From positions 89,647 to 153,646 of the forward strand of contig DASYHQ010000050.1 in the NCBI GenBank assembly GCA_035998445.1: DNA of 64,000 bases, in the 5' to 3' direction. This document shows positions 14,271 to 53,506 of this stretch, piece after piece (positions within the stretch are counted from its first letter, which is position 1; every line of letters begins with the position of its first letter). The notes below the pieces were generated by a model. It saw only the letters and a program-made list of their open reading frames with translations. It did not search any database and was not told the origin of the DNA. Source of the stretch: Tepidisphaeraceae bacterium. GTDB taxonomy: Bacteria > Planctomycetota > Phycisphaerae > Tepidisphaerales > Tepidisphaeraceae. Position numbers and translations under genes: made by a program.

Positions 14271-14291
14271 GATGATCTTCCGAGCATCAGC

Positions 14292-15848: not shown

Positions 15849-15906
15849 CCTACGCTCATTGTTCGGGCCGTGCCGGCTGATACTTATCACTCGACAGAGC
15901 AGCGAC

Positions 15907-15936
15907 CGTCATCCTGAGGTACTCCGAAGGATGACG
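15907..15936. repeat. Truncated family-C hairpin (cgtcatcctgaggtactccgaaggatgacg) downstream of aroDE
   Basis: 8-bp stem cgtcatcc/ggatgacg. Confidence 0.6.
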
Positions 15937-16000
15937 GTGAGCGCCTGAAGTGCGAGCCGCATGACAGACGAAAGCTTCCCTCGCACCAACCGAAACCGAA

Positions 16001-17528: not shown

Positions 17529-17593
17529 AAAATCGTCCCGTTAAGGCGGCGTTGTTGCAGTGAGCGTTGCCGTGATTATGCTCACGCAATCAC

Positions 17594-17755
17594 ATGCAGT
17601 TCATACACCTGATCATGTTCACGGCGATTGCGATCGGTGCGGTCGCGGGTTGTCGATCTTCGCCGAACCCGTCGGGCTCGGCCCCCACCACGCAGCCGAC
17701 GACGGCCGACGATGCCCTGCCACACGATGCGCCCCCACGGCAGCCCAGCTACTGA
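17594..17755 (+). CDS. Small putative lipoprotein (53 aa)
   Basis: MQFIHLIMFTAIAIGAVAGC has a signal peptide plus a lipobox-like AGC. It is below the ORF-track cutoff and convergent with the next gene, overlapping its 3' end by 7 nt. Confidence 0.3.
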   Translation: MQFIHLIMFTAIAIGAVAGCRSSPNPSGSAPTTQPTTADDALPHDAPPRQPSY

Positions 17756-18429
17756 GCCTTCGGCATCTGTACGATGCGCTCGGCGGGACCGATCGCCCGG
17801 CCGGTCAGGAAGTCGATGAACCGAACCTTCACGCGCACCGCTTCCACCTGCGGCACCGTTTCCCACGGGCACGGCAGCACGTAGGCATACACGAACGTCG
17901 AGCTGACCCAGAGCTTTTTCAACTCTTCCGGACCGAACTCCCATCGCCCGAGCAACGGTTCGGGCGACTGGTGCGGGTCGGTCACCTCAACGATCATGCG
18001 CCCGGCGGCCTTGATCGTGTCGCCGGTATCGTCGCGCGGGGCCACCTGCACCTTTAGCGCGGGAATGGCGGGCTGGGTGGTGGTGATTTCGGTGGGCCCG
18101 GTCAGCCGGCCGATCTTCAGTTCGACCACGGTGAACAGTTCCGGCAACCGCGTTGGGTTGACGGCAGGCTGGGTGGTGTTGGGGGCGCCGCCAAGGACGG
18201 CCAGCGATTGGGTGTCGGCCTTGTGCTGGCGTTCGAGCTCGACGATGCGGTCGTTCAGGTTCTGGTTTTCCTTCCGCAGCGCGATGTTGGCCGCGCTGGG
18301 GCCGCCGCATCCTGTGGTGATGAGCGCTAGACCGGAGATGGCCGCCACCATCAACAAACTTTGCCCCAATATCGCGCAGCGGGATTTTGAAGTCCCAGAA
18401 CGAATCGCGATGTGGGGATGATCGGGCAT
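17749..18429 (-). CDS. Hypothetical lipoprotein with a coiled-coil segment
   Basis: Signal peptide plus lipobox LITTGC. ENQNLNDRIVELERQHKAD is coiled-coil-like. An alternative start is at 18351. Confidence 0.55.
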   Translation of the reverse strand: MPDHPHIAIRSGTSKSRCAILGQSLLMVAAISGLALITTGCGGPSAANIALRKENQNLNDRIVELERQHKADTQSLAVLGGAPNTTQPAVNPTRLPELFTVVELKIGRLTGPTEITTTQPAIPALKVQVAPRDDTGDTIKAAGRMIVEVTDPHQSPEPLLGRWEFGPEELKKLWVSSTFVYAYVLPCPWETVPQVEAVRVKVRFIDFLTGRAIGPAERIVQMPKAQ

Positions 18430-18449
18430 CAGGGCTCGGTCGAACGAAG

Positions 18450-18575
18450 GACGGCACTCCTACTCCTCTCCCGGTACGCCGGGAGAGGCTGGGTGAGGGT
18501 GATTTCCGTTCTTCCGACAGTCGTCAGCAGTCCGAAATCACCCTCACCCAGCCTCTCCCATGAATACATGGGAGA
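18450..18575. repeat. Family-B composite palindrome
   Basis: ctctcccggtacgccgggagag, ggctgggtgagggtgatttc ... gaaatcaccctcacccagcc, ctctcccatgaatacatgggagag. Confidence 0.8.
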
Positions 18576-18591
18576 GGGGCCGGACGTAAAA

Positions 18592-19242
18592 CTATTCCTT
18601 CTCATCCGCATCGGTCGCGCGGGGCGCAACGCTCGGGGCGCGGTCGAGGATGCGGTCGGCACAGCCGTATTCGACGGCCTCTTCTGCAAACAGCCACTTG
18701 TTGCGATCGAAGTCGCGGTGGATCTGCTCGGTGGTCTTGCCGGTGTAGTCGCTCATCATCTTGTACAGGCGGTCGCGCAGGCGAAGCATGTGGGCGGCCT
18801 CGATGCCGAGGTCGGTCGCCGGGCCCTGCATCACGCCACCGATGAGCGGTTGGTGCAGCATGACCTGGCTGTTCTTCAACACCGACCGCTTGCCCTTTGT
18901 GCCGGCGGCCAGCAACACCGAGCCCATGCTGGCGGCCATGCCGATGCAGGTGGTGGCGACGTCGCAGCGGAGGAACTGCATCGTGTCGACGATGCCGAAG
19001 CCCGCGCTCACGCTGCCACCGGGGCTGTTGACGTAGAGCTGGATGTCGGTCTTGGGGTCATCGTTGGACAGGAACAGCATCTGCGCGATGACGGCGTTGG
19101 CCGAGTCGTCGGTCACGGGGCCGTTCATCATGATGATGCGGTCCTTCAGCAGGCGCGAGTAGATGTCGTAGGCGCGCTCGCCGCGACCGGACTTTTCGAT
19201 GACCATCGGGATCAGGGTGTTCTGCGTCATAATCTCTCTCAA
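18592..19242 (-). CDS. clpP: ATP-dependent Clp protease proteolytic subunit
   Basis: Full ClpP fold with Ser ([10 protein letters not shown]), His (MLHQPLIGG) and Asp. Confidence 0.95.
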
Positions 19243-19499
19243 TTGTTGTTCGATCGCTTCGACGATTTCTTGTCCAGTGCCGGTTCGAGCGAAGCGACAT
19301 GCAGGTAAGAGACCGACGCGTACGATTCCGGGATGTCGCTGCGTTGTTTCGGGGACGACACGGCGACCACGAGGCTACGCTTTGTAATCAGTACATTATC
19401 CGGATGCCGCACGCGGTATCGATCTCCGCTGCTTAAGACGATGTCAAACGGATCGAACGGTTGCTGTTTCAGCTTGTCGCGAATCGCTTCGTAATGCAT
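19239..19499 (-). CDS. Hypothetical 86-aa protein inside the clpP operon
   Basis: Protein-like composition. Its stop overlaps the clpP1 start (ATGA) and it lies 14 nt downstream of the VOC gene. Confidence 0.5.
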
Positions 19500-38090: not shown

Positions 38091-38225
38091 GGCGACAAGT
38101 TCGTGAATCACACGACGCCGCGCCACCCCGCCGCTGGGGGCGCGGCGTCGTCGTTTAATTACTCTTTTCCTTAGGCCGCGTTGTTGTTCCCAAAGCACGG
38201 GGCTTCGGCGCATACTGTCGGCATC

Positions 38226-40934
38226 ATGAACAAGCGCAGCATCGTTTCGATGGCGACGGCGGTGGTGTCGGTGGTGGGTTCGGTTGCGGGCATCGCGCGC
38301 GGGCAGGACCCGATGGTGATGTCGCCGATGTTTCCGTTCGTGTTGCCGTGGGACGACGTCAGCGAGAACGTGACCAACGTCAGCAGTTGGCTCGACGCGC
38401 CGGCGGGCAAGCACGGGTTCATCGCCGCGCGCGGGCCGCACCTGTACGCGGGCGAACAGCGGTTCCGCTTCTTCGGCGTGAACATGGCCTTCGGGGCGAA
38501 CTTCCCGCAGAAGGACGACGCCGACAAGGTGGCCGCCCGCATGGCGCGGTTCGGCATCAACTGCGTGCGCTTCCACCATATGGACATGTTCGCGGCGCCA
38601 GCGGGCATTATGACGGCCGACATGAAGGGGCTGGACGCGCAGCAGCTGGACAAGCTGGACTTCTTCGTCGCGGCGCTGAAGCAGCACGGCATCTACAGCA
38701 ACATCAATCTGCACGTGAGCCGCGTCTACCCGGACATGCCCGGGTGGGAGAACGCGCCGGACTTCCATAAAGGCGTGGACCTGTTCTATCCGCCGATGAT
38801 CGAGGCGCAGCGCGACTTCGCGCGGCAGCTGCTGTCGCACGTGAACCCGTACACGGAGACCAGTTACGCGGACGAGCCGGCGGTGGCGATCGTGGAGATC
38901 AACAACGAGAACGGGCTGCTGCAGCAATGGTGGGGAGGCGCGCTCGACGCGATGCCCGAGCCGATCGAGCGCGAGCTGCACAACCGATGGAACGCCTGGC
39001 TGAACGGCAGGTACGCCAGCCTCGACGACGTGCGCAAGCAGTGGCAGGAAGGCGCCGAGCCACTCGGCGAGCCGATGCTGCGCAACAGCGACTTCGCCCA
39101 AGGCATGGACGGCTGGACGCTGGAGCGCCACGGTGAGGCTGACGCGAATGCGACGATCGACGAGAACGCGGGCAACGGCAACGGCGGGCGCGCGATTCGC
39201 ATTACCGTGGACAAGCCCAGCAGCGAGTCGTGGCACGTGCAGCTGGTGCAGCCGGGCCTAAGCCTGAGCAAGGGGAAGGCGTACACGCTATCGATGCGCA
39301 TGAAGGCGAGCGGCGACTTGAAGAACACGAACGTCGCGATGGCGCAGTCCGGCAGCCCATGGAACGTGCTGGCGAGCAGCAGCGTGCCGCTGACCGACCA
39401 GTGGAAGGACGTAACGCTCGTGCTGCGCGCCAGCGCCGATGAGCCCAACGCCCGCCTGATGATCGGCGGGCTGGCAGCGGCCAAAGGCGAGGTGTCGATC
39501 GCCAACCTTTCGCTGCGCCCCGGTGGGCGCGGCGGGCTGAAGGACGATGCGAAGCGCGGCGACATCCCGATCGTCACCAGGGCCCACTACGGCGCGCTGA
39601 CCGAGTCGGCGCAGCGCGACTGGATCACGTTTCTGTACGAGACCGAGGAAACGTACTGGACCGAGATGAGCGCGTTCCTGAAGAATGATCTTGGCGTAAA
39701 GTCGCTGGTGGTCGGCAGCGCGACCGGCTTCAGCCCGTCATCCATTCAAGCTAAGCTGGACGTGGTGGACGTGCACGGCTACTGGCAGCACCCGCACTTC
39801 CCCAACAAGCCGTGGGACCAGGCGGATTGGGTGGTGAACAACCTGTCGATGGCGGGCGCCGAGGACGGAGGGCAGATCCCCGGCATGGCGCTGCGCCGCG
39901 TGGCGGGCAGGCCCTACATCTGCACCGAGTACAACGCCGCGTCGCCGAACACGCATTCGTCGGAGACGTTCCTGCTGCTGTCGGCCTACGCGGCCATGCA
40001 GGACTGGGACGGCATCTTCGCCTTCGCCTATTCGCACCGCACCGACGACTGGGCGGCGGGCAAGATCCCCAACTTCTTCGACATCGACCAACACCCCACC
40101 AAGCTCGTCACCCTGCCCGCAGCGGCGGCGATGTTCCTGCGCGGCGACGTGACGGTGCCGGACGCGCGAGCGGTGGTGAACGTGTCGCGCGAGGAGGCGA
40201 TCACGCAGAGCATGAACTCTGGCCCCTGGTGGCACGCGGGCGCGTTGGGCATCGACCCGCTGACGGCACTGGTGGCGCCTGTGGCCATCGACACCGGCGA
40301 CGCCACCCCGACGACGCAACCGGCGGCAACGACACCGGCGACCGCGGCAGCCGAGGCGACAACGGCGGCGGCCAATGCGCCGGTGAAGATTGATCCCCCC
40401 ACCGCCGGGCAGCCGATCGTCAGCCGCGGTGGTGAGTTGACATGGGACGCGCAGCGCAAATACGTCACGATCAACACGCCGCGCAGCAAGGCGTTCATCG
40501 GGGAGATTCCGGCCGACCAACCGATCGCGCTGGGCACGGTGAAGCTGACGCTCAGTCCGAACCTGCAGAACTGGGCGGCGGTGTCGATGACGGCGATCGA
40601 CGGGCCTGACTTTCAGTCGCCGGGCCGGTTCCTGATCACCGTCACCGGATCGGCCGAGAACACCCGCATGGGCTGGAAGAACGCCGAGCGCAACACGGTG
40701 GGCCGCGACTGGGGCGAGTCGCCATCGCTGGTGGAGGGCATCGGCGGCACGATCACGTTCGAGAACGTCGACAAGGAAACGTGGGCATGGGTGCTCGACG
40801 AGCGCGGCCAGCGACGCTTGGAGACGACGAAGATCAGCACGCCGACATCCAAGGGGTTCCAGTTCGGCCGCGAGTCGGGCACGATCTGGTATGAGGTGGA
40901 GATCGGCAAGGAATCAGCGTTGGTAGATCGGTAG
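38226..40934 (+). CDS. Secreted glycoside hydrolase family 5 enzyme with CBM-like and C-terminal beta-sandwich domains
   Basis: Signal peptide. GH5 motifs (FRFFGVNM ... RFHHMD, IVEINNENG as the catalytic acid region). An internal CBM-like segment and a Thr/Ala/Pro linker. Confidence 0.75.
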   Translation: MNKRSIVSMATAVVSVVGSVAGIARGQDPMVMSPMFPFVLPWDDVSENVTNVSSWLDAPAGKHGFIAARGPHLYAGEQRFRFFGVNMAFGANFPQKDDADKVAARMARFGINCVRFHHMDMFAAPAGIMTADMKGLDAQQLDKLDFFVAALKQHGIYSNINLHVSRVYPDMPGWENAPDFHKGVDLFYPPMIEAQRDFARQLLSHVNPYTETSYADEPAVAIVEINNENGLLQQWWGGALDAMPEPIERELHNRWNAWLNGRYASLDDVRKQWQEGAEPLGEPMLRNSDFAQGMDGWTLERHGEADANATIDENAGNGNGGRAIRITVDKPSSESWHVQLVQPGLSLSKGKAYTLSMRMKASGDLKNTNVAMAQSGSPWNVLASSSVPLTDQWKDVTLVLRASADEPNARLMIGGLAAAKGEVSIANLSLRPGGRGGLKDDAKRGDIPIVTRAHYGALTESAQRDWITFLYETEETYWTEMSAFLKNDLGVKSLVVGSATGFSPSSIQAKLDVVDVHGYWQHPHFPNKPWDQADWVVNNLSMAGAEDGGQIPGMALRRVAGRPYICTEYNAASPNTHSSETFLLLSAYAAMQDWDGIFAFAYSHRTDDWAAGKIPNFFDIDQHPTKLVTLPAAAAMFLRGDVTVPDARAVVNVSREEAITQSMNSGPWWHAGALGIDPLTALVAPVAIDTGDATPTTQPAATTPATAAAEATTAAANAPVKIDPPTAGQPIVSRGGELTWDAQRKYVTINTPRSKAFIGEIPADQPIALGTVKLTLSPNLQNWAAVSMTAIDGPDFQSPGRFLITVTGSAENTRMGWKNAERNTVGRDWGESPSLVEGIGGTITFENVDKETWAWVLDERGQRRLETTKISTPTSKGFQFGRESGTIWYEVEIGKESALVDR

Positions 40935-41987
40935 CAAGCGGTACGGCACGGTGAGCGTGAGCACCGACATGCTGGTGCTGTAGACGCGGCCGGGTTCCTC
41001 ACCCGTGCGGCTGGCGGGCCAACCGCCGTCGGGCATTTGCTGGGCCAGCAGGCGATCCATCGTGGGTGGCCAGACCGCCTGCCACGTTGCCCCGCCCGCT
41101 TGAAACGCGGCCTGCGCGGCGTAGTAGGTGGCGTAGTACGGGTAGCGGGTGGTCTCGGTGGCGAGGTTGTTGGCTAGGAACTCTGCGGCCGCCGCGGCCT
41201 CGGGGTAGTCGGCCGAATCCAGCAGGCGCAGGTTCAACAGACCCACGCCGGTCATCGCGGTGCTCGGCTCGTGGCCAGCCTGATACGCGAAACCCTTCTT
41301 GTCCTTTCGATAACACCGCAGCACGTACTGAACCGCGCGCGCCACGCGTTCCTTCGGCACTTCGATGCCCGCGTTCTGCGATGCCCGCAGCGCCAACGCG
41401 TTCCAGCCAGACAGCGACAGATCGCTATCGACCGACTGCGGCTCGTAGCGCCAGCCACCGGTGTCGTTGGCCGACTTCTTCACGTCCTGCGCGTCCAGGA
41501 TCACCTTCACCGCCCGCGCGATGGCCGCCAGCATCTTCTGGCGGCGCTCGGGGTCGGGTTCGATGCCGGCCGCCTCGGCCAAGGCCAGCGTGGTGATGCC
41601 GTGACCGTACATCCGGCTGCCATCAACCTTGCCGAAGTACCCGTCCGCCGGCGCGACCGACAGCAGGTAATCGATTGCCGACCGAACCGTCTCCCCGTGC
41701 AGCCCCACGTCGGGAGTGTGCCCCGCCGCCAAAAATGACATGAGCCCCAGCGCCGTCATCGCGACGCGCGGCCCACCACTGTCCAGCGAGCCGTCAGGCT
41801 TCTGCTGAGCGGCCAAGAACGCCAGCCCGCGCGAGACGCCTTCATCCAATCGTGCAGGCAACGGATCGGCCTGCTGGGCGCGCACCGTGACCGGCGCAGC
41901 GAGCAGACAACCAATGACGATCGCCACGATGAACACCGGGAACCAGCCGCGTGAACGCGCCGTCAAGTGAAACAGTCGACGATTCAT
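40914..41987 (-). CDS. Secreted prenyltransferase/squalene-oxidase-repeat protein (terpenoid-cyclase-like alpha/alpha toroid)
   Basis: Signal peptide. Repeated Q/W/G motifs (DGSLDSGG, DTGGWRY, DGGWP) typical of PFTB/SQHop-cyclase repeats. The ATGA overlap with the upstream giant gene gives a 4-nt overlap. Confidence 0.6.
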   Translation of the reverse strand: MNRRLFHLTARSRGWFPVFIVAIVIGCLLAAPVTVRAQQADPLPARLDEGVSRGLAFLAAQQKPDGSLDSGGPRVAMTALGLMSFLAAGHTPDVGLHGETVRSAIDYLLSVAPADGYFGKVDGSRMYGHGITTLALAEAAGIEPDPERRQKMLAAIARAVKVILDAQDVKKSANDTGGWRYEPQSVDSDLSLSGWNALALRASQNAGIEVPKERVARAVQYVLRCYRKDKKGFAYQAGHEPSTAMTGVGLLNLRLLDSADYPEAAAAAEFLANNLATETTRYPYYATYYAAQAAFQAGGATWQAVWPPTMDRLLAQQMPDGGWPASRTGEEPGRVYSTSMSVLTLTVPYRLLPIYQR

Positions 41988-44900
41988 TTCGTCCCCCCAT
42001 CGCCCGCCTTGCCGAGCGTTTCGAAGTACAACCGCACCGGTTCTTCGAACCCAACGGGGTCGGAATCGCGCCGCACCGCCGACGTCTCGGGCTTCGTGCC
42101 GACGCGCATGCGACCCCACTGCCGCAAGTTCGGCACGAGCGACATGATCCGCTCGGCGGCCTCGCCGTCACCAGCGCCGCCATCGGCGTTGACCGGGAAA
42201 AGGTTGAAGACCGACATCATCGACGGCACCGTCGCCATCCGTTCGCCCGCCGCCTGGTGGATCGATCGGTCCCATGCGCGCGTGAGCGCCGCCGACGCCA
42301 CGCGCTGTTGCCGCTCGGCCGCCAACAGGTCGGGTGGTCGCATCTTCAGCGACCGCACGGCCGCGCGCGAAAACCAGCGGGCGGCCACCAACGGGTCGCG
42401 CTCGATCAGCTCATCCTGTGCCGCGAGCAGTTCCGCCTGCACCTGCTCGATCGCCTGGCGCGTCTTGCCAGCCGCACGCTCCAGCTCATTCGCATCGTCC
42501 ACGCCGACCGACTGCGCGTACGCGCGCAGCGCAGGCAGCAGCGCGCGATCAATCGCCTCGACGCCTCGCCGGGTCGGCGGACGGTAATTCGACAGGTCGG
42601 CCGACATGCCTTCGGCCACCTGCGGCCGCACCGGCACAGCGGCGGCGTTCGTACGCGTGACGGCCTCAGCTAGATCGCGATCGGCCTGCGCAATCACGCG
42701 CTGCGCCGCAGGCAACTGATCGGCCGGCGTGGCATCGGCAGACTGCTTTGCCCGATCAAGGCGAACTGCGGCGTCGCGGCGTATGCCATCCGCTCGCGCC
42801 ACCTGTGACAGGGCCTGTGGCATCGCAGCCAACTGCTCCTGCGCGGCCTGGATGGCGGCGATGGCCTCCTCGCGCCAGTCTGGATCGTCGGCGTTGCGCA
42901 GGTCCAGTCGAGTGTCGGCGTGAACCTCGCCGATCGCGTCGGTCAGCGTTTCCTGCTTCGTCGCCAGTTCGCCGGCGCCATTAGGCGGCGCGAGCCTTGT
43001 TTCCTCGGCCAGCGCCTGCTGTTGCGCCGCCAGATGGTCGATCCGCTCCGCCGCGGCCATCGTTCGCGCTGCCCGGGGCAGCGGCATTTCATCGCCGCCG
43101 TTGGCCTCTGGGGCGGCGGACTGCGTTGTCGAACGGGCCAGCGCGCGGTCAATGTGCGCCGCCGTCGCGTAATCGCGTGTGGCAGCGGCGGCGTTCGCTT
43201 CGATGGCGAGCGTCTCGGGCGACGCTTCGATCGATTCCTGTTCAGGTTGAACGCTCACGTCCACCTGTTCCAGCCCAGCCCAGGCAAACATGCGCCGCCG
43301 GCCCTCGTTCGCCACGCGCTGTCGGTCGGCCACCTCGTCGGACGATGGCCGGTCCTTCATCGGGCGGTTGGTCTCGTGATACCGCTGCAGCGCGAGCATC
43401 GACGCGGGATACAATTCGCGCGGCAGTGGATCGGTCGGCCGCGTGGTGGGCGCGACGCGATTCGTCTCGATGCGCGACGCCGCCTCGGCCGCCACGTGCA
43501 CGTCGCGGGCGCGCACGAGGTCCGCATCCGGCCGGATCGATTCCGCCTGCGCGGCCATCGTCAATCGGTCGTCGAACCCCGTACGCTTGTGCGGCTTGGC
43601 GATCTCGACCGCCCAGGCATCGGCGGCCTTCGCAAAGTCGGGCAGTTGCTCCGACTGCATCACCCGATCGGCCGCCTCCACGCGACGCTGCAACTGCTCG
43701 GCGACATCGCCGGCGCCGGGGTTGATCTCCAACTGCTTCAGCGATTGCGCAAAGTCCTCCGACAACCGCTTGATGCCAGCCTTAAGCACTTCGGGATAAT
43801 CCGGAACGGCGGCCCGCGTGGTGGCGGCGGCGACGTTCTCCCGCTCGGCCAGTGCCGCGATCGCCCGCTCGCCGATCGCCAGCGTGGCCAGCATGTCCCG
43901 CAGTTCCCGTGCCCGCTTGACGGATTCGTCGATCTGTGAACGGGCGCCCTCGCGGTCGCTGCGAATGCCGATCAGGCGTTCACTGGCCAACAGCTGTTGC
44001 TGGGCCACGTCCAGCGCAGCGGCGAGCGCGACGGACATCTCGTGTGACCGGCTGCGCAGCGTCGCCCGCAACAGCGACTGCCGCAGCACCGCCGCCGACT
44101 CACCCACGCGCGCCACCGCCCGGTTCGCCTCCGCGACTGCCGACAAGTACGCGCCACCACGCGCCGGCTGTTTGGCCAGCGCCTCGAACGCCTCGGCGGT
44201 CGTCGCCCACGCCTTCAACAATCCCTCGGCCACCGTGCGGGCGGCGCTCAGTTCCACCACCCGCTGGTGCGCGTTCATGTCCATCGACCGTGGCGACACC
44301 AGCGCCGTGACCGGGCTGCTCTCGGCGGTTTGCGACCGGCCGTCGCGTGCCTGAACGGTCACCGCGATCACGTCGCCCACGTTCACGTTCAACGCCGCCA
44401 GATCCAGTGGGTACGTCTGTTCCTGCTGTCGTGGGTCGCCGATCACCTTCAGCCCGATGCGGAGTGACGCCACGCCATTCACCTTCACCAGCGCCGCAAG
44501 TTCGCTGACGCCGTAATCATCGAACGCCTGGTACGACAGCGGCATGAGGTCGCGCGGGCCGGGCCGTGGACCCTCACCGGAGTCAAACACGCGCACCAGT
44601 GGTGGGCGATCGGGCAGGGCGCGGATCGCGTACTTCCCTAACTCGTTCGTTGCGCCCCGCTCGCTCGTGAGCGCAACGCTGTAGCTGGCGTCCTTCAGCA
44701 CCGGTAACGTCACCTGCCGCACGTTTGTCTCTAACGTGCGCGCTAGTTGGAGTTGCTTATCCCCCACCTGCAGGGCCGCCGCCAAAAGGGGTTCGGTCGC
44801 GGCGATGGTTACCGTGGCCTGCGTGCCCGCGGGCGCTTCGATCAGGCCGGTACGATTGCTTACGATCAACGGTGGGCGCTTCGTGTACTCGGGGTAAACG

Positions 44901-45787
44901 TACCGAATGCGGAAGTCGGTGATCAGCGGCCGGCGCAGCACCTGCACGTCGTATGTGGGCGTGACCGCGTCGCCACCGGTGACGAAGTACCGCACGTCGC
45001 TGCTGAGCGTGTCGAACCGATGCACGAAGCCACGCTCGGTCTGCACCATCGCGTGCTGCGACCCCACCTGCCCTCCGGCCGACACCACATGCAGGCGCGG
45101 CACGTCGCTGCCCAAGCGATCGGCCGTCACCAGCACCGACAGCGACTGCCCCTGCTGCACCTGCGCCGCCCCCGGCATCACGTTGAGCCGCGTGGTGGTG
45201 ACCGGTGCGATGTCCGCCAACGGCAACGCAGCACGCGCAGCCAGTTGAGGCAGGTTGAGCCAGCGGATCGGCAGGCAGGCCAGCACGGTGATGCACGCGA
45301 TACCCAGCAGCACCCACGGCCGCGCGATAAGGCGCAACGGCAGCAGTGGGCGTGGGTCGGCGTCCTTCGCCTGCGCGGTTGTCGACTCGACGACCTGCTG
45401 CAGCATCGCCACTGATCCGTGATACGCCTGCGGCCCGAGCAGCCGCGACGTAACGGTCGACAGCCGCTGCTGCCAGCGTGGGTCGCACCGCTCAGCCAGT
45501 TCGCTGGTCGCCTCGTAGTCTGTTCGGCCGCGTGCCCATCGCCACAGGACGGGCAGGAAGACGGTGGCGGCGAACGCGATGTTGACGAGCAACAGCGCCA
45601 ACCTAATGCCGCCGGGCAGGCGCAGCAGGCGATCGACCAGGCACGACGTCAGCCCGAACAGCACGAGGATCGCCAGCGCGCGACCCGTTGCGCGCAGCAG
45701 CGACAGCTTGCGCTGCCGTGCCGCAAGGGCCGTCAGGTAGCCTGCAATCGATGCGGGCAGGAGGTTGTCTGACGCGCGCTTCATCAT
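41984..45787 (-). CDS. Giant (1267 aa) membrane-anchored hypothetical protein: N-terminal TM helices, a central beta-rich region and a ~600-aa Ala/Arg/Glu-rich helical region
   Basis: Hydrophobic segments at aa ~35-75 and ~150-170. The low-complexity A/R/E/Q-rich C-terminal half has no enzymatic motif. Confidence 0.6.
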   Translation of the reverse strand: MMKRASDNLLPASIAGYLTALAARQRKLSLLRATGRALAILVLFGLTSCLVDRLLRLPGGIRLALLLVNIAFAATVFLPVLWRWARGRTDYEATSELAERCDPRWQQRLSTVTSRLLGPQAYHGSVAMLQQVVESTTAQAKDADPRPLLPLRLIARPWVLLGIACITVLACLPIRWLNLPQLAARAALPLADIAPVTTTRLNVMPGAAQVQQGQSLSVLVTADRLGSDVPRLHVVSAGGQVGSQHAMVQTERGFVHRFDTLSSDVRYFVTGGDAVTPTYDVQVLRRPLITDFRIRYVYPEYTKRPPLIVSNRTGLIEAPAGTQATVTIAATEPLLAAALQVGDKQLQLARTLETNVRQVTLPVLKDASYSVALTSERGATNELGKYAIRALPDRPPLVRVFDSGEGPRPGPRDLMPLSYQAFDDYGVSELAALVKVNGVASLRIGLKVIGDPRQQEQTYPLDLAALNVNVGDVIAVTVQARDGRSQTAESSPVTALVSPRSMDMNAHQRVVELSAARTVAEGLLKAWATTAEAFEALAKQPARGGAYLSAVAEANRAVARVGESAAVLRQSLLRATLRSRSHEMSVALAAALDVAQQQLLASERLIGIRSDREGARSQIDESVKRARELRDMLATLAIGERAIAALAERENVAAATTRAAVPDYPEVLKAGIKRLSEDFAQSLKQLEINPGAGDVAEQLQRRVEAADRVMQSEQLPDFAKAADAWAVEIAKPHKRTGFDDRLTMAAQAESIRPDADLVRARDVHVAAEAASRIETNRVAPTTRPTDPLPRELYPASMLALQRYHETNRPMKDRPSSDEVADRQRVANEGRRRMFAWAGLEQVDVSVQPEQESIEASPETLAIEANAAAATRDYATAAHIDRALARSTTQSAAPEANGGDEMPLPRAARTMAAAERIDHLAAQQQALAEETRLAPPNGAGELATKQETLTDAIGEVHADTRLDLRNADDPDWREEAIAAIQAAQEQLAAMPQALSQVARADGIRRDAAVRLDRAKQSADATPADQLPAAQRVIAQADRDLAEAVTRTNAAAVPVRPQVAEGMSADLSNYRPPTRRGVEAIDRALLPALRAYAQSVGVDDANELERAAGKTRQAIEQVQAELLAAQDELIERDPLVAARWFSRAAVRSLKMRPPDLLAAERQQRVASAALTRAWDRSIHQAAGERMATVPSMMSVFNLFPVNADGGAGDGEAAERIMSLVPNLRQWGRMRVGTKPETSAVRRDSDPVGFEEPVRLYFETLGKAGDGGTK

Positions 45788-45836: not shown

Positions 45837-48419
45837 TCACGCCAATCCAAGCCGTTTGCGGAGCGCCCACTCGGTGCCAAGGCAAGCCAGCACGAACAGG
45901 AACAACTGCGGGCTGTCCCACAGCGACCACCGAGCCAGACCGTACCGCGCGTCGCCCGCCGCCAGCAGACGCTGCGGTAGATCTTCGAATGACTCCACGG
46001 TTGCATATGCACCGCCGGTCGAGTCGGCCAACTGCTTCAAGAACTCCGGGTCGGACGCAACGTTCAGCATCTCGCGATTGGCGTCCACCTCAACAAACAG
46101 CGGCACGTGTGGCGAATCGGGCCGGTCGATCGATAGATCGTATCGCCCGCTGGCCAAGTTGGTGAGCCGCGCTTCAAAACGGTCATCGCCAGCGTCGGTC
46201 GCGGCCATGACAACGTCGGGCAGTGCTTCTCCATCGCGCGATACTTTCAGGACCATCGACTCCGTGGGCGCGTCGGCATCATCCTGCGGCTGCACGCGTG
46301 CCCGCACAGTCGCGCTTCCCCCAGGCGACAACGTTACGGCGTCCACGTCGATCGCTGCGCCACCACCGCGCGCGGCATAGGGTTCACCCGCGGCATGGCG
46401 GATGAGTTGCAGTAAAAATCGGTCCTGGTCGCGCTCGCCGATTTGTCGCCGCCAACGCCACGTTTCGTTCAGACCGACAAACAGCACCCGGCCGCTGCCG
46501 AGGCGCATCTGCGTCATGACCGGCGATTGCGAGTCCGGCTCGATCAACAACGGCTCGGCGGTCGGCTTGAGCCCCGAGAGCGGCAGCACGCGGAAGAGCT
46601 TGGGCAGCTCTTGCCATCGGCGGGCCGATTCGTCGGCATCATCCGCCAGGCGCAGCGACACGATATCGCGCGCCAGCGGCGCCGGCGCGACGCGCAGCGT
46701 CGGCCGTTCGCCCGCCCAAACGCGCCATGCGTACCGCACGCCCGCGCGCAACGGCAGCAGGCTGGCCGCCTGCGGCTGCTGCGCGTAGCCGTCCAGCACG
46801 CGCTCATCGTTGGCCAAGATGATAACGCTGCCGCCGCGCGTCGAAACCATCTGATTCAGTGCATCCCACTGGGCGCCGTTTAGCGACTCCACACCGATAT
46901 CGCACAGGATGATCGCGTCCTGCGCCAGTATCTCCGCTGGCGACAACGGCAGCTTCACCTCGCGCGCGACGACGATCGCCTCCTTCAGCTGCGCCCACGC
47001 GGCCCGCTGAAGCGCGTTGCGTAGGTACTGAAAATCCCACGTCGGCGAACCGGCGTAAGCAGCGATCCGCAGTTTCCCCGCGAGCGCGCGCATGCGGTGT
47101 GATGCGGTGTTGTTGGTGTCCGTGCGCTCGCCGGGTTGAGGCGGCAACGCGACGACAACATCCAGCACACCCGCGGGCTCGGCCTTGAAGGTGAAATCAA
47201 CGGTCGCGTCACCGTCGGCCGCTGGCGAGACCTGCTTCGTCTGTTCGACGTTCCCAGCCTTCAGTCGCACGTCTATTGGCCCAGCGAACCGGCCGCTGGT
47301 GCGCACGCGTGCCTGCACCGTCACCGTCTCGCCAACGAATGGTCGCAGCGGCGCAGAGACGATCTCTACCGACGCATCCCGCGGTGGCACGGCCGGCGCG
47401 ACGTTAACCGGGAAGACCGGCGCAGCCGTGGCCGCGTTGGGCTCCGCATCGGTCGCCACCTGTCGACCATCGGTCCAAAGCACCACGCCCCGCACCCGGC
47501 CGGGCCCGAAGCGCGCGATGGCGGCCGACACCGCATCACGGCTGTCGCTGCGCGCGGCTGCGGGCTCGACGGACGTGATGGACGCCAGCGTGACGGGCGC
47601 AGCCCCATCGTCGGTGGCGGCGTAGACGAACAGCGGCACGTCGACCGGTAGCGCCGCGGCCACGCGGGCCGCGCCTTCGGCCGCCAACTGATAGCGCGAG
47701 CGCTGCCCGACCAGATCTGCGGCTGCGCGAACGGTGGGATAGGTGCGGTACCGTTGCCCATCACTCCGAGCCGCAGCGTTGGCCATCGCGTCGGCAACGC
47801 GATCAGCGCGGGCGCGCAGCGTAGCGTCGGACGCGTCGCCGTCGCCCATCGCCCGGATGGCGCGCAACACGTCTTCATCCAAGGCCGGCACGTCCGTAGC
47901 GACGAGTTGTCGCCGGGCCTCGTCCACGGCAGCGCGCGCGTCGGCTGTCAGGCGGTCGAGCGATTCCGCATCGCTGCCCGAGGGGTCGGCCAGCCGGGCC
48001 TCCGCCCGCGTGCGCTGCAGCGCATCCAGCGCGGCCGTCAGTGCATCAATTTGTTCCCGGACCCGCACGTGAACGGGGTCGGCCCGCTCGGCGGGCAGGC
48101 GGCCGACGGCGCGGGCGATGGCCACGCGGTCGGCCGGTGTGCGTTCGTCGACGATGCTCATGCTTTGCGACGCGTCGATCACCATCAGCACCGCGCCTCG
48201 GTCCACCTGCGGGTTCGGCGCCGCGAGGTTCGGCTTCAGCACCGATAGCATGAGCAACACGATCGCCGTGATGCGTAGCAGCGGCAGCGCAGCGCGGGCC
48301 GCCCAGTGCGACATGCGCGCCTGCGGTCGGTACGCCCAAACAACGAACGCGATCGCTACGATCAGAAGCACCAGTGTGGCCGGCAGCGCGCTCAGGTTGT
48401 CCCAACTGAAGCGTGCCAT
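45837..48419 (-). CDS. VWA-domain membrane protein (BatB-like), ~860 aa
   Basis: N-terminal TM pair, then the MIDAS motif LMVIDASQSMS, and a C-terminal TM. The start ATG shares 1 nt with the upstream stop (TGATG). Confidence 0.6.
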   Translation of the reverse strand: MARFSWDNLSALPATLVLLIVAIAFVVWAYRPQARMSHWAARAALPLLRITAIVLLMLSVLKPNLAAPNPQVDRGAVLMVIDASQSMSIVDERTPADRVAIARAVGRLPAERADPVHVRVREQIDALTAALDALQRTRAEARLADPSGSDAESLDRLTADARAAVDEARRQLVATDVPALDEDVLRAIRAMGDGDASDATLRARADRVADAMANAAARSDGQRYRTYPTVRAAADLVGQRSRYQLAAEGAARVAAALPVDVPLFVYAATDDGAAPVTLASITSVEPAAARSDSRDAVSAAIARFGPGRVRGVVLWTDGRQVATDAEPNAATAAPVFPVNVAPAVPPRDASVEIVSAPLRPFVGETVTVQARVRTSGRFAGPIDVRLKAGNVEQTKQVSPAADGDATVDFTFKAEPAGVLDVVVALPPQPGERTDTNNTASHRMRALAGKLRIAAYAGSPTWDFQYLRNALQRAAWAQLKEAIVVAREVKLPLSPAEILAQDAIILCDIGVESLNGAQWDALNQMVSTRGGSVIILANDERVLDGYAQQPQAASLLPLRAGVRYAWRVWAGERPTLRVAPAPLARDIVSLRLADDADESARRWQELPKLFRVLPLSGLKPTAEPLLIEPDSQSPVMTQMRLGSGRVLFVGLNETWRWRRQIGERDQDRFLLQLIRHAAGEPYAARGGGAAIDVDAVTLSPGGSATVRARVQPQDDADAPTESMVLKVSRDGEALPDVVMAATDAGDDRFEARLTNLASGRYDLSIDRPDSPHVPLFVEVDANREMLNVASDPEFLKQLADSTGGAYATVESFEDLPQRLLAAGDARYGLARWSLWDSPQLFLFVLACLGTEWALRKRLGLA

Positions 48420-50578
48420 CAGCCGCGCCCTCCTGCCGACCAGCGGCGTGCAAGCAGCATCTCGCTCATCAGCAGCACGCCACACAGCGCCAGTAACGAG
48501 CCCCACAGCTCGCGCCCCCGGCGGTCGCGCGAGAGCGACCATGGCACGGGCTGCTGACTTAGGTCAATGCGCTGCGCGCCCATCGCTCCGGATATCTCAT
48601 CCCACCGCGCGATCGACAAGGGCGTGATGTCCGACTCATCTCGCGACGGTCGCATGACGAACGGCGTCGTCCGCTGGCCCGTTCTCGTGCGATAGCGCAC
48701 CCGATACAAGCCATCGACAGAAGTGTCGTCGTACCGCACCTCGGTGCGCGCGCCGTTGCGGTAGACGGCTGGCGATACGGTGCGGCCGCTGGGGAGTTGT
48801 ACGCGTACGTCACCATCAATGGGCTCATCGATCGTGAGGACGATTGGCTCGCCCGGCGCCACGTTGCGCTCGCGGTCGCCCGATGCAAGGTGGCGCACCA
48901 TCGACTGCACGAACGGCAGGTAAAAGCTGGACAGCGGCAACGCCGACCAGTCCGCATCCAAGCCCGTCGTCATCAAGGCCACACGCCCACGACCCCAGGC
49001 CGACTCGACCAGGAACGGGCGGCCCGAAGCATAGGTCACCGCCACCGTGGCATCGGGCTGGCGCGGCGTGACCGGGAAGTATCGCCCAATGACCACGTTC
49101 GGAATAGGGTCAGGCCGGCCGCGCAGGAAGGAAAGCGCCGGGTGCAAGAAGTCGACGCCGAGGATCGCTGTCGCCTCTGCCCCACCGGCGGACGTGGGTG
49201 GTTGCAGTTCGGCGGGCAGAATGCCGGCGCCGTCGCGCCAGAGCTGCGCGTTGTACTGCTGCGCGTCCACCAGCGTGCCGGGCGCGATCAGGAGGCCGCC
49301 ACCTTCGTACACGAACTGCTCGATCGCCTTTACGCTGGCCGGGCTCAACTGTCCCACGTTGGCCAGCACCAGGACCTGCTGTGCGTCCAACATGGCGGGC
49401 TCAAACTGCTCGGCCGGCACCACCGTGACGGCGGCGGGGTCGACGCCCTTCTTGCCGGCGGCGGTGTAAGGCGCGACGGCAATGCGGAAGAACGTGGACT
49501 CCGACGCCGCCGCGTCGCCGCGCTCGTCACCGCTTAGTAATAGCACGCGTACCGGTGGCGTCACGCTGACGACGGCACGCAGCGCGTCGTCGGTTTGCAG
49601 GCCGGGCGCGGCGATGCGCGCCTCGATCAGGTGCGAGCCGGGCGTGGCAAAGCTGGTCGTGAAGCGGGCCGTCGCGGTCTCGCGCGCGGCGACGGCGAGC
49701 GTCTGCTGCGCGATCTCGCGCGCGCCGCGGTGCAGCGTGACCGGCACCGATGGCTGCGCCGTCGGGCCGTAGTTGCGCACGCGCACCTCGACGGTGGCCC
49801 GTTCGTCGACGATCGCTGGCGTCTGGACGAACTGCACCGATTCCACCGCGACGTTCTCGGCCAGTTCGCCCCCAACGGGAAAGATCGACAGTCGCGCGCC
49901 GGCCGATGCATCAATAGCCGCGTCTCGTCGCCACGCGCGGGCAAAGTCGAGCGTGACGTTACGCCAGTTGGTCGCCTGCCGATCGCAGACGATGAAGATT
50001 CGGCCATCTTGCTGCGGCGCGGCGCGTTGTAATAACCGATCGGCGCGGTTCAGTTCCTGCGCGAAATCGACGGCCCGCCCCGCCGGTCGGGCGGCTGCGA
50101 TGCGGGCGGCGGTCGTGCGCAGATCGGTGGTGGGCGAGAGTTCGGCATCGTCCTGTGCCTGACCGGCGAGCAGCAGCGCCACACGGTCCCCCTGCCGTAA
50201 CGTCGCCAGCAGCTTCAGGGCTGCCTCGCGAGCGGCTTCCATGCGCGATTGGTTACCCTCGACGATCGCCATGCTTGGCGAGCAGTCGAGCATCAGCACG
50301 ACCGTCGCAGGCCCGCCGGGCGCAAGGGCCGCCCACGATTCACTGGTGATCGGGCGGGCCATCGCCAGCGCCAGCAGCGCGACGATCAGCATCCGCATCG
50401 CCAGCAGCGCGTACTGCTTCAGCTGGCTTGACTGCCGATCGCGCGGGTCGGCCCCGTGCAGGAACATCATCGCGCCCCAGTCCACGCTGCGGTACCGCGC
50501 GCGGCTTAGCAGGTGTAGCACCAACGGCAACAACGCGCCGCCGAGGCCTGCGAGCATGAGGGGGTTGAGGAAGGTCAT
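48419..50578 (-). CDS. BatA-like protein: N-terminal double-TM anchor (TIGR02226-like MTFLNPLMLAGL...HLLSR) plus VWA domain
   Basis: N-terminal motif. The MIDAS motif VVLMLDCSPSM. 719 aa. Confidence 0.7.
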   Translation of the reverse strand: MTFLNPLMLAGLGGALLPLVLHLLSRARYRSVDWGAMMFLHGADPRDRQSSQLKQYALLAMRMLIVALLALAMARPITSESWAALAPGGPATVVLMLDCSPSMAIVEGNQSRMEAAREAALKLLATLRQGDRVALLLAGQAQDDAELSPTTDLRTTAARIAAARPAGRAVDFAQELNRADRLLQRAAPQQDGRIFIVCDRQATNWRNVTLDFARAWRRDAAIDASAGARLSIFPVGGELAENVAVESVQFVQTPAIVDERATVEVRVRNYGPTAQPSVPVTLHRGAREIAQQTLAVAARETATARFTTSFATPGSHLIEARIAAPGLQTDDALRAVVSVTPPVRVLLLSGDERGDAAASESTFFRIAVAPYTAAGKKGVDPAAVTVVPAEQFEPAMLDAQQVLVLANVGQLSPASVKAIEQFVYEGGGLLIAPGTLVDAQQYNAQLWRDGAGILPAELQPPTSAGGAEATAILGVDFLHPALSFLRGRPDPIPNVVIGRYFPVTPRQPDATVAVTYASGRPFLVESAWGRGRVALMTTGLDADWSALPLSSFYLPFVQSMVRHLASGDRERNVAPGEPIVLTIDEPIDGDVRVQLPSGRTVSPAVYRNGARTEVRYDDTSVDGLYRVRYRTRTGQRTTPFVMRPSRDESDITPLSIARWDEISGAMGAQRIDLSQQPVPWSLSRDRRGRELWGSLLALCGVLLMSEMLLARRWSAGGRG

Positions 50579-50916: not shown

Positions 50917-51831
50917 CTATCGCCTCGCCGTACCACCGCCACTGCCGCCTCCGCGCATGTGCAGGAACTGCGTGAGCGAATCGATTAGCGGACGGTCGGT
51001 CATCAGCGTGTGGAACTCACTTCCGAGCGCGCGGGCGCCGTCGGTCAGGTCCTGGCGGTGCTGGCGGAAACGGTGCAGGTACGCCTCGCGCACGAGCGCC
51101 GGCTCGCAGACCGTCGCGGCCTCGCCTTCCAGTCCGCGGAAGCGCGACCAGGTGCGGAACGGAAACTCGACCTCGTCGGCGTCCAGCGTGCGCAGCAGGA
51201 TCGTCTCGTGGCGGTCGTGGCGCAGGCGTGCCAAGCACTCGCGCACCTGTTCGACCGGGTAGAACAGGTCCGAGACGATGATCACCAGCGCCCGCCGATC
51301 GAGCCGGTTGGCCACATCGTGCACCGCGGCCTGAAGCGACGACTGACCGGCGGCGGTGGAACGTTCGAGCACGTCGATAATGCGCGACAGCTGCGCCTGC
51401 CCCGCGTGCGGGCCGATCCAGCTGGCGACCCGCGACTTGAAGACGGCCAGGCCGACGCTCTCCGTCTGCCCCAGCATCAGGTACGCCAGCGACGCGGCGA
51501 GCGTCGAAGCGTAATCGAACTTCGACCCTGCTGCCGATCGGTAGGCCATCGATCCGCTCGCGTCGATCATCAGCACGCAGCGGAGATTGGTCTCCTCGTC
51601 GTACTCCTTGATGTACGGCCGATCGGTACGGCCCAGCACGCGCCAGTCGAGCCGGCGCGGTTCGTCGCCGGGCGTGTAGAAGCGATGCTGGCGAAACTCG
51701 ACGCTGGCGCCCTTCACCGGGCTCTTGTGCTGCCCGACGGTGCTGCCCTCCACGACGCGCCTCGCCGACAGCTGCAGGTGGTTCAGCCGTTCGATCAGGT
51801 TCGGTTCCAGCAGTCGCGAAACGTAACTCAT
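50917..51831 (-). CDS. DUF58-family protein (degenerate VWA, usual partner of a MoxR ATPase)
   Basis: RVVEGSTVGQHKSPVKGASVEFRQHRFYTPGDEPRRLDWRV and LMIDASGSMAY. Confidence 0.8.
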   Translation of the reverse strand: MSYVSRLLEPNLIERLNHLQLSARRVVEGSTVGQHKSPVKGASVEFRQHRFYTPGDEPRRLDWRVLGRTDRPYIKEYDEETNLRCVLMIDASGSMAYRSAAGSKFDYASTLAASLAYLMLGQTESVGLAVFKSRVASWIGPHAGQAQLSRIIDVLERSTAAGQSSLQAAVHDVANRLDRRALVIIVSDLFYPVEQVRECLARLRHDRHETILLRTLDADEVEFPFRTWSRFRGLEGEAATVCEPALVREAYLHRFRQHRQDLTDGARALGSEFHTLMTDRPLIDSLTQFLHMRGGGSGGGTARR

Positions 51832-51862: not shown

Positions 51863-53506
51863 TCAGGCGTTGTCTTCGTCTGGCTCGTCGGCCATCGTGG
51901 GCGTGCGCAGGTCGATGACGACGGTGCCGGCCGCGGCGTCGCCGGCGCGCTGGCCGAGCGGGGAGAAGACGACCAGCAGGATCGGTAGTAGGAACGGTGC
52001 CAGCAGCGCGATGTCGACGATGCGCAGAACGTTGCGAACCAGGATCGCCGACACCGTCGGTCGCACGCCCTGCAGATCGACCACGGCCAGCCCAAAGATC
52101 GCCTTGCCGAGCGTGCGCCGGAAGATCAGTTCGGAGATAGTCGTGTGCAACAGGTAGACCGCGATGCCGATCAACCCTTGCGCCGTCGCGGCGAGCGTGG
52201 GGGAGACGATTTCGTCGGGCTGACGGCGCAGGTAGTACACGACGCCACCGATGATCAACGGTAACGCGTCGACCGTGGCCGCCGACATGCGAATCCAGAA
52301 CTTGGCGGCGCGTGGGCGGTCGCGGCGGGCCATCGTCTCGCGCACCACGTCGCGCTGCCGGTACGACGCCATGATCGTCACCGCCAGCATTACCACCACG
52401 CCGATGTTCACAATGCTGAACCACGCCGGCTCTTCATCGGGTGGCGCCAGCAGACGCACCGGTTGCGGTTCACCGACCGGCTGGCCGTCCCAGGTCAACC
52501 GTTGCTCGGTCACCTTACCGTCGGCGGCGACGTTGATGGTCCGCAGTGTGCCCAAGGCCGACGCGACGGTCGAACTTTGGCTTGCGGGCACGGCCGTCGT
52601 GGTAGCGAGCGTATTGGTGAAGTTGTCAACCGGGACGATCCGGCTGGCGCTGCCATCGCCGGTCCAGATCCAGGCGCGGTGCTCGCCCTGCACACCGCCG
52701 AAAAACGCAAGCGGGCCGCCATCGATAGGCGTGGTGGACGTTACCTGCCCATTGGCGGGGTTGATCGTGAACAGCGTCGAGTTGCCCGGCGAGCTCGTGA
52801 CGGAAACGATCACGCGGTCAGCCAGCGGGAGGATCTCGGCGCCGTTGATCAGGTCGAGCGGTGGCTGCGTGGGCAGTTGGACGATCGGCCTCCAGATGGC
52901 GCCGTCCAGCCGAAACAGCACGACGGCGGAACCGGTGGTGGCCGGTTGCGTCGCCGGGCCGGTGGCTGCCGCTGCGGGACCGGTGCTTGGGGCGGTAATC
53001 GTCGTCGTGGTTGTCGCGGCGCGGGGGCCGGTGGTGGGACGGGTCGCGGCGCGGGCGCTGTCGATGCCACCGGGCACGGTGCCGACGGCCCAGACGCTTT
53101 GCGCTTCGGCACCGATGGCCAGGATGCGGCCCCCCGCCGGCAACGGCGTGCCACCACCACTGCCACCGGGCCACACAGCGATCCAGTCACCGTCATCGGC
53201 CAGCAGGATCGCGCGGTCGGTCCAGCGCGACAGCGCGACCACGCGCTCGGGGATGCGCGCAACAACGGAGAAACGTTCCTGGCCGAACGTGCGCTTGTAG
53301 ATCGTGCTCTCGATCGGCGTGGTGGCGCTGCCGGTCGGCTTGCCAACGGCCAGCCAGAACCCGTCGGCCGACCCGGTTGCCGCGACGCTGCCTGCAGCGG
53401 CAGCGGTGGTGGCAGCCGTCGTCGTCGGCAGGGTCTGGGCCAGTGCCGGTGATGCGAGGAGGACCAGGAACAGGAGGACGAGAAGATTACGGGCCGCACG
53501 CTTCAT
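51863..53506 (-). CDS. Secreted protein with a C-terminal RDD-family membrane domain
   Basis: Signal peptide, a Thr/Ala-rich linker, beta-rich repeats, a C-terminal RDD-like region (RQRD ... RRTLGKAIFGLAVVD) and TM helices. Confidence 0.55.
   Translation of the reverse strand: MKRAARNLLVLLFLVLLASPALAQTLPTTTAATTAAAAGSVAATGSADGFWLAVGKPTGSATTPIESTIYKRTFGQERFSVVARIPERVVALSRWTDRAILLADDGDWIAVWPGGSGGGTPLPAGGRILAIGAEAQSVWAVGTVPGGIDSARAATRPTTGPRAATTTTTITAPSTGPAAAATGPATQPATTGSAVVLFRLDGAIWRPIVQLPTQPPLDLINGAEILPLADRVIVSVTSSPGNSTLFTINPANGQVTSTTPIDGGPLAFFGGVQGEHRAWIWTGDGSASRIVPVDNFTNTLATTTAVPASQSSTVASALGTLRTINVAADGKVTEQRLTWDGQPVGEPQPVRLLAPPDEEPAWFSIVNIGVVVMLAVTIMASYRQRDVVRETMARRDRPRAAKFWIRMSAATVDALPLIIGGVVYYLRRQPDEIVSPTLAATAQGLIGIAVYLLHTTISELIFRRTLGKAIFGLAVVDLQGVRPTVSAILVRNVLRIVDIALLAPFLLPILLVVFSPLGQRAGDAAAGTVVIDLRTPTMADEPDEDNA

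Follow-up and report, generated by a model that had tools for sequence, protein, structure and literature searches.

DUF4175 and TIGR02302 proteins are widespread, as are the MoxR-DUF58-BatA operons that end with them, and genetic evidence from several phyla links them to envelope integrity, cell morphology, and infection of the host. Mutations in cmdA-D (RL3499-RL3502) lead to envelope dysfunction and morphology defects, according to a summary in bioRxiv 10.1101/551135 and a title cited in PMC5700661. A TIGR02302 gene sits in the CenR envelope/division regulon of Rhodobacter (PMC9275681), and the title of Sato et al. 2016, cited in PMC6842974, links a TIGR02302 deletion in Azorhizobium to exopolysaccharide overproduction and an infection defect. 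For the Borrelia BatA-type protein BB0173, the VWA domain was experimentally shown to be periplasmic (PMC5700661). In this study, we analyzed a 64-kb stretch of DNA from a Tepidisphaeraceae bacterium (contig DASYHQ010000050.1, hereafter the window), in which a gene of 1267 codons (the target) lies in an operon of this kind. Based on sequence comparison, the target product is a DUF4175-like protein of a Tepidisphaerales-specific subfamily and not a TIGR02302 protein.

In our literature search, AdvA of Acinetobacter baumannii (ACX60_RS00475) was the only experimentally studied protein found with a DUF4175 annotation. This annotation stands beside two predicted N-terminal transmembrane (TM) helices, and AdvA is described as an essential cell-division protein in which transposon insertions are tolerated only around residues 203-238, downstream of the DUF4175 domain (PMC7481262). 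AdvA is likened to the target by annotation and published description, and the same paper is silent on immunoglobulin (Ig) domains, a long helical tail, and a MoxR/BatA operon.

The Bat (Bacteroides aerotolerance) and cmdA-D operons resemble the present locus in that DUF58 and BatA_N+VWA genes lie upstream, with MoxR in the canonical operon of the relatives, and in that they encode large membrane-anchored proteins predicted to face the periplasm. In contrast to Bat operons, no BatB/C/D/E-type TPR, SH3, or BatD domains were found here. Moreover, the terminal subunits differ from those of Bat/cmd operons, being a membrane protein named p901, the DUF4175-like protein, and an alpha/alpha-toroid protein, and MoxR is absent from the window. 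As for TIGR02302, this alphaproteobacterial family (aProt_lowcomp, about 850 residues) has two to three N-terminal TM segments and a long, extracytoplasmic, compositionally biased C-terminal region, as the target does. It is further marked by Gln/Gly-rich low-complexity C-terminal stretches, a feature that the tail of the target lacks (Gln 5.6%, Gly 4.6%). The target is about 400 residues longer than TIGR02302 proteins and has no Gln/Gly-rich segments.

The target belongs to the DUF4175 superfamily

The assignment of the target to the DUF4175 superfamily rests on profile homology, architecture, a C-terminal motif, and synteny. A homologue search covering 5.8 billion proteins gave two groups. 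The first comprises 28 close relatives at 27-59% identity, which are mostly full-length and of which none is annotated with PF13779, the Pfam family of DUF4175; the second is a more distant tier (E 1e-20 to 1e-4), most members of which carry PF13779. With BLASTP, the target matched PF13779 proteins at E values of 1e-20 and 5e-25 over residues 161-483, which are in register with residues 162-487 of a 1265-residue DUF4175 protein. Furthermore, hhalign aligned the profile of the target's clade with that of 24 PF13779 proteins at a probability of 100% and an E value of 5.3e-63, columns 10-504 matching columns 11-511. Since this alignment is collinear throughout, the TM hairpin, loop domain, third TM segment, and three Ig-like domains described below are homologous in the two sets. 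The Pfam model covers only about residues 290-480 of bona fide PF13779 proteins (profile positions about 192-400), and both BLASTP and hhalign found homology over this region. In a 46-sequence superfamily alignment, E99 in the loop domain and P299, G321, P396, D423, and G426 in the Ig domains are invariant.

Family models alone do not recover this relationship. PF13779 (gathering threshold 27.3 bits) did not match the target even at E<=10, and the only match of a Pfam/NCBIfam scan at that threshold had a meaningless E value of 0.57. Among 23 full-length clade members, one was matched by PF13779 directly (E 8.7e-14). TIGR02302 gave no match to the target at E<=0.1 and no tested relative passes it; the best of them, P0042, reached 13.1 bits against a curated cut-off of 394.3. 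When the clade-alignment profile was compared with PDB sequences, only chance matches to rhodopsin TM segments appeared (E>0.5). A BatD-like identity was rejected because the target matches none of the BatA_N, BatD, TPR, and SH3 models. An adhesin or S-layer protein was likewise considered and rejected.

An earlier reading, made from the sequence alone (the sequence-only reading), had proposed a remote-homology search against DUF4175/TIGR02302-type families. The hhalign result shows this to have been the right lead, with TIGR02302 membership itself finding no match. The same reading was loosely reminded of proteins that follow BatA-like genes in other phyla, a likeness that turns out to be true homology with conserved synteny. 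PF13779 proteins of Gemmatimonadota, Acidobacteriota, Myxococcota, and Planctomycetota (e.g., P0042, 1265 residues) are collinear with the target over the N-terminal ~500 residues, have a similar overall length, and possess a long, seemingly helical second half (modeled for the target, judged by sequence for the PF13779 set). They share with the target the C-terminal motif P..Y...V..Y[YF]..[LI] and the same position as the last large gene after MoxR-DUF58-BatA/VWA. In contrast, their tails contain Gly/Gln-rich low-complexity runs that are missing from the target. In addition, the target operon differs from PF13779 operons in a ~900-residue membrane protein inserted between BatA/VWA and the target and in a toroid gene coupled downstream.

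The target also shows the architecture of the superfamily, that is, a hairpin plus a third TM segment, an Ig-like region, and a long helical half in a protein of about 1000-1300 residues. We judge its genomic context to be that of the superfamily as well (after MoxR, DUF58, and BatA_N/VWA), although MoxR itself is absent from the window. Collectively, these results extend the DUF4175 family to a Tepidisphaerales clade missed by curated hidden Markov models. In practical terms, this is an annotation upgrade of an ordinary family member and not a new system.

Membrane segments, loop domain, and Ig-like domains

The following features, all on the minus strand, give a domain map of the target consisting of a TM hairpin, a Glu99 loop domain, a third TM segment, three Ig-like domains, a helical-bundle array, and a tethered C-terminal helix.

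41984..45787, minus strand: open reading frame (ORF) of the target, 1267 residues plus stop, ATG start; divergent DUF4175-superfamily inner-membrane protein
45680..45787, minus strand: basic N-terminal segment, residues 1-36, presumably cytoplasmic, with 7 K/R in the target
45542..45679, minus strand: TM helical hairpin, residues 37-82 (TM1 about 37-55, TM2 about 63-81)
45314..45541, minus strand: conserved helical loop domain between TM2 and TM3, residues 83-158, presumably cytoplasmic
45257..45313, minus strand: third TM segment, residues 159-177, which would put the remainder on the periplasmic side
44294..45205, minus strand: three tandem Ig-like beta-sandwiches, residues 195-498, from an AlphaFold2 (AF2) model; aligns with the region of the Pfam DUF4175 model
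42200..44284, minus strand: all-alpha region, residues 502-1196, about 24 helices in predicted concatenated bundles
42059..42199, minus strand: flexible Gly/Pro-containing linker, residues 1197-1243 (1197-1245 in the AF2 model), predicted local distance difference test (pLDDT) <50 in AF2
42008..42058, minus strand: C-terminal motif PxGFEEPVRLYFETLGK, a short amphipathic helix, residues 1244-1260

An AF2 model of residues 1-520, built from the 46-sequence alignment, had a mean pLDDT of 93.2. Hydropathy indicates three hydrophobic segments at about residues 37-55, 63-81, and 159-177. In the model, a hairpin made of the long helices 12-55 and 59-86 is followed by a small helical domain (residues 91-142) and by the third TM helix (residues 152-171). 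The sequence-only reading had counted two hydrophobic helices, one fewer than hydropathy and AF2 both support. Across 46 superfamily members, the net charge of the N-terminal segment averages +4.3. Because the N-terminus is strongly basic and the number of TM segments is odd, the protein most plausibly adopts an N-in/C-out topology with ~1090 residues in the periplasm. The loop domain between TM2 and TM3 contains, besides the superfamily-invariant E99, the clade motif QRLxTVTSRLLGP.

The three Ig-like sandwiches span about residues 200-285, 289-392, and 397-497 in the AF2 model, and a helix begins at residue 502. Thus, a beta-rich center is present as the sequence-only reading had described, and its limits narrow from residues 180-560 to about 200-497. 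Within the clade, the mean pairwise identity of the Ig domains is 0.43-0.47. A Foldseek search of the N-terminal model against the PDB returned only generic tandem Ig/FN3 proteins, including complement MG domains.

The helical tail and the C-terminal motif

For residues 501-1267, AF2 was run with 23 sequences and gave a pLDDT of 84.4 and a predicted template modeling score (pTM) of 0.78. The model contains 25 helices of 7-49 residues, with three short loops and the 49-residue linker as its only low-confidence parts. As modeled, the tail reads as roughly five or six concatenated helical bundles. It ends in a short helix at residues 1248-1261, whose hydrophobic face consists of V1251, Y1254, F1255, and L1258. 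The pattern P-x-x-[YF]-x3-[VLI]-x2-Y-[FY]-x2-[LI], followed by a few basic residues, ends nearly all complete clade and DUF4175 sequences; it was defined in this analysis and is not a curated family criterion. In the target, it occurs as PVGFEEPVRLYFETLGK.

The sequence-only reading had described a helical tail of ~600 residues. The helical character is confirmed by AF2, and the length is revised to about 765 residues (502-1267). Two other parts of that description found no support. The tail is not extremely low in complexity, as SEG masks about 96 of 767 residues (~12%), self-comparison revealed no internal repeats, and conservation is like that of the rest of the protein, with a mean pairwise identity within the clade of 0.39-0.54 that is comparable to the TM/loop regions and close to the Ig domains. 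Nor is it modeled as a long coiled coil; AF2 predicts packed helical bundles instead. Its composition is 20% Ala, 11% Arg, 8% Glu, 5.6% Gln, and 4.6% Gly.

When the tail by itself was searched with phmmer in 1.84 billion representatives at 50% identity, 236 proteins matched at E<=1e-3 and 189 of them at E<=1e-10. In all full-length proteins among these, the match lay at about residues 500-1270 of ~1200-1370 residues. This constant position marks the tail as a clade-specific, strictly conserved module that never occurs in another architecture among these matches, and at the sequence level it is specific to the Tepidisphaerales clade. A Foldseek search with the whole tail gave no match at E<=1e-3. 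The resemblance to the talin rod and to other strings of 4/5-helix bundles is a structural analogy only, with a sequence identity of 7-14% and higher scores for designed bundles, and there is no evidence of homology to talin-like bundles or of a force-bearing function in the target.

A conserved operon in Tepidisphaerales

On the minus strand of the window, the genes are arranged in the order RDD-family protein, DUF58 protein, BatA_N+VWA protein, ~900-residue membrane protein (p901), target, and 357-residue toroid protein. The module genes around the target are as follows.

50917..51831, minus strand: DUF58 (VWA-like) protein, 304 residues, no TM segment; first module gene in the window
48419..50578, minus strand: BatA_N (TIGR02226 double-TM) + VWA membrane protein, 719 residues (BatA719)
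45837..48419, minus strand: p901, membrane protein of ~860-900 residues, directly upstream of the target
40914..41987, minus strand: toroid partner, 357 residues, directly downstream of the target

The target stop and the toroid start share the 4 nt ATGA (..ACG AAA TGA / ATG AAT CGT..). The sequence-only reading had noted this overlap, and the translational coupling that it indicates is real and conserved among relatives. The toroid protein has an N-terminal hydrophobic signal or anchor and a weak prenyltransferase/squalene-cyclase-like alpha/alpha-toroid signature. For p901, the listed ORF of 901 residues starts 124 nt inside the BatA/VWA gene. Its homologues align only from about residue 39-82 onward, and Met42 at 48419 overlaps the BatA stop as TGATG (48417-48421), with GGAGG ahead; the true product is therefore probably of ~860 residues and coupled to BatA. 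The C-terminal ~370 residues of p901 are related to the GATase1_like protein of a bona fide DUF4175 operon.

Synteny was compared across 26 related loci. The complete operon consists of MoxR, a kinase-like gene, DUF58, BatA/VWA, p901, target, and toroid, and is found in L011, L020 (Fontivita pretiosa), and L024; it is partial in about 20 further Tepidisphaerales loci. A p901 gene lies directly upstream of the target homologue in 21 of the 22 loci that have an upstream flank, and a toroid gene directly downstream in about 19 related loci. A C-terminal motif common across phyla and a fixed partner set (p901 and toroid) have been identified. In other phyla, distant PF13779 genes adjoin MoxR-DUF58-BatA/VWA (L004, L007, L030, and L033). 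L007 is the only distant locus with a squalene-cyclase-like toroid gene directly after the DUF4175 gene, an arrangement by which the DUF4175-toroid association recurs outside Tepidisphaerales. At this locus (14025-19455, weak PF13779), two toroid genes, a YdjY-like gene, and a HEAT-repeat gene lie between the DUF4175 gene and MoxR-DUF58-BatA.

A scan with one genome per GTDB species found the full-length type in Tepidisphaerales only. Its carriers include Tepidisphaeraceae metagenome-assembled genomes (MAGs), Humisphaera, a few bins labeled Phycisphaerales, and Fontivita pretiosa B-254, which is cultured and has a complete genome. In this cultured organism, the complete operon lies at about 639.5-661.4 kb of NZ_CP191258.1, and its presence there makes the hypotheses presented here testable.

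Several further features of the related loci stand out. As a conserved member of the operon, a kinase-like gene of ~275 residues lies between MoxR and DUF58 in L002 (2660-3499) and L020 (about 2466-2903), with equivalents in L005, L008, L009, L011, L014, L016, L023, L024, and L027; its Pkinase match is limited to the N-lobe up to the catalytic-loop region. To our knowledge, a kinase-like subunit is unusual in a MoxR/VWA operon. Two clade members, P0024 (1454 residues) and P0019 (1549 residues), are 200-300 residues longer than usual. Since P0024 has an F5/8 type C (discoidin, PF00754) domain and a PF22633 domain, the periplasmic part of clade proteins may be able to take up modules that bind carbohydrates or other ligands. 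Only in L022, a Tepidisphaerales MAG, is the homologue flanked by neither p901 nor toroid; the match there (9001-11535) ends at query residue 837, and a paralogue, truncation of the gene, or misassembly could explain it.

In the window, the site upstream of DUF58 where relatives have MoxR and the kinase-like gene (L011, L020, and L024) is occupied by a gene at 51863-53506 (minus strand). Its 547-residue product has Thr/Ala-rich stretches between a signal peptide and a C-terminal RDD domain. Neither MoxR nor a kinase-like gene was found anywhere in the 64 kb of the window. Either a distant MoxR serves the module or it runs without one.

Proposed role and alternatives

We consider it rather probable that the target, as a divergent Tepidisphaerales-specific DUF4175 member, is an inner-membrane-anchored periplasmic scaffold subunit that closes MoxR/DUF58/BatA-VWA (Bat/Cmd-type) envelope operons. 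Anchored N-in/C-out, it would project its Ig domains, helical array, and C-terminal helix into the periplasm, where the bulk of BatA719, p901, and the toroid protein is predicted to lie as well. There, the Ig stalk and the helical-bundle platform might together organize p901, the BatA-type VWA protein, and the toroid protein as a non-enzymatic scaffold. A non-enzymatic function is favored because no catalytic family or motif is detectable; the sequence-only reading had found no catalytic motif either, and this absence agrees with the lack of any enzymatic family match. The linker-tethered amphipathic C-terminal helix may act as a docking element. Since L004 keeps the C-terminal motif without having an adjacent toroid gene, the toroid protein is a less likely partner of this motif than a universal component or the DUF4175-like protein itself. 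Moreover, the loop domain with the invariant Glu99 would be the only sizeable cytoplasmic surface for coupling to the DUF58/MoxR ATPase pair. By analogy with the cmd/bat operons and TIGR02302 mutants elsewhere, the physiological role may be cell-envelope maintenance or assembly.

Several points weigh against this proposal. The target has no Pfam or NCBIfam match (0 at E<=0.1), and the tails of the clade and of the DUF4175 set have no detectable similarity except in the last 21 residues, which hhalign aligned at an E value of 1.4e-3 and a probability of only 17%. No MoxR gene lies within the 64-kb window. We know of no experiment on any clade member or on the biochemical role of any DUF4175 protein. 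In addition, we infer rather than observe the interaction with the neighbors, the N-in/C-out topology, and the docking of the C-terminal helix.

The sequence-only reading had suggested a ruler or scaffold spanning the periplasm, an idea compatible with the predicted architecture. In its strong form, this alternative is a periplasm-spanning ruler or tether, in which the Ig stalk and a helical rod would start at the inner membrane and extend as far as the peptidoglycan or outer membrane, set or sense the periplasmic width, and use the C-terminal helix as a distal anchor. The ~1090 extracytoplasmic residues are predicted to form serial rigid modules, the conserved C-terminal helix is tethered behind a flexible linker, and locally the model resembles rod domains such as talin R-bundles. 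However, Pfam/NCBIfam scans revealed no peptidoglycan-binding, lipoprotein, outer-membrane-insertion, or other anchoring domain, the tail pTM of 0.78 suggests bundles packed together and not a fully extended rod, and the C-terminal motif is shared by phyla whose envelopes differ greatly. We regard this alternative as unlikely. The tail could also be a previously unseen periplasmic helical-bundle rod of ~700 residues, which in its entirety matches no solved structure and no other sequence. With the strictly co-encoded p901 and the translationally coupled toroid protein, it would form a lineage-specific periplasmic machine that MoxR/DUF58/VWA assembles or remodels. Such a machine, which may, for example, be an inner-membrane-to-wall/outer-membrane tether or a width-setting strut of the planctomycetal envelope, is an equally doubtful prospect.

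With its conserved loop domain and a Glu99 that is invariant across the superfamily, the target might be a transmembrane sensor or relay. In this case, the helical bundles, which resemble 4HB sensors, would sense an envelope cue and signal via TM3 and the hairpin to the loop domain, which in turn would regulate the DUF58/MoxR pair or the kinase-like protein of the operon. Such a relay would fit the canonical Tepidisphaerales operon, where a Pkinase-like gene separates MoxR from DUF58. Yet only about 110 residues are cytoplasmic and no recognizable output domain is found among them, the structure matches of the bundles are generic with designed bundles scoring highest, and the target is intact in a window without kinase-like and MoxR genes. 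A sensor or relay is thus decidedly improbable.

Less probable still is that the target is a client and not a component, which would need the MoxR/DUF58/VWA machinery for its folding, insertion, or assembly and have an unrelated function of its own. MoxR-VWA pairs are generally described as factors by which particular client complexes are matured or inserted (PMC3893208, PMC9976466, and PMC13036017), and the linkage to MoxR-DUF58-BatA is constant across phyla. Against a client, the gene in the window and at several other loci is linked to BatA/VWA and p901 without an adjacent MoxR, and no independent functional domain was found that points to a separate role. A scaffold subunit of the operon remains our preferred interpretation.

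The target is a real, conserved gene

The sequence-only reading had placed the target at 41984-45787. This ORF, which lies on the minus strand, begins with ATG and has 1267 codons, is borne out, and the target is a real, conserved gene. Its product is 100% identical to the NCBI hypothetical protein VGN72_18870 from a Tepidisphaeraceae MAG, whose annotation begins at the second Met and is hence one residue shorter. The planctomycete origin assumed in the sequence-only reading is therefore correct. More than 20 full-length homologues (27-59% identity) are conserved up to the last residues, and residues invariant along their full length include W725, R741, E749, R752, W1224, Y1254, and F1255. The GC content at codon positions 1/2/3 is 0.73/0.50/0.83 in the target frame only and is similar across five sub-regions. 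This is the coding pattern of a high-GC genome, which makes the long ORFs of the opposite strand artefacts. The sequence-only reading had named a GC-bias artefact as what would overturn it; codon GC and homologue conservation show that this is not the case. A spurious ORF left open by high GC, or a decaying pseudogene, might be suspected from the 65-72% GC of the window, its many long ORFs on both strands, and the lack of family matches, but is excluded, being refuted by conservation (236 tail relatives, always at the same position in proteins of ~1200-1370 residues, and synteny across related loci), by a GC3 of 0.83 versus a GC2 of 0.50 in this frame alone, and by confident AF2 models of both halves.

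Antisense to the target, several ORFs of 100-340 residues (e.g., 42920-43939, plus strand) have Arg/Gly/Pro-rich translations. Such translations are typical of antisense frames in high-GC genes, and these ORFs are therefore not genes. Beyond the operon, a plus-strand gene (38181-40934) is convergent with the toroid gene, and the two share 21 nt at their 3' ends (40914-40934). This plus-strand gene encodes a 917-residue protein that combines a GH5 cellulase-like domain with a carbohydrate-binding CBM_4_9 domain.

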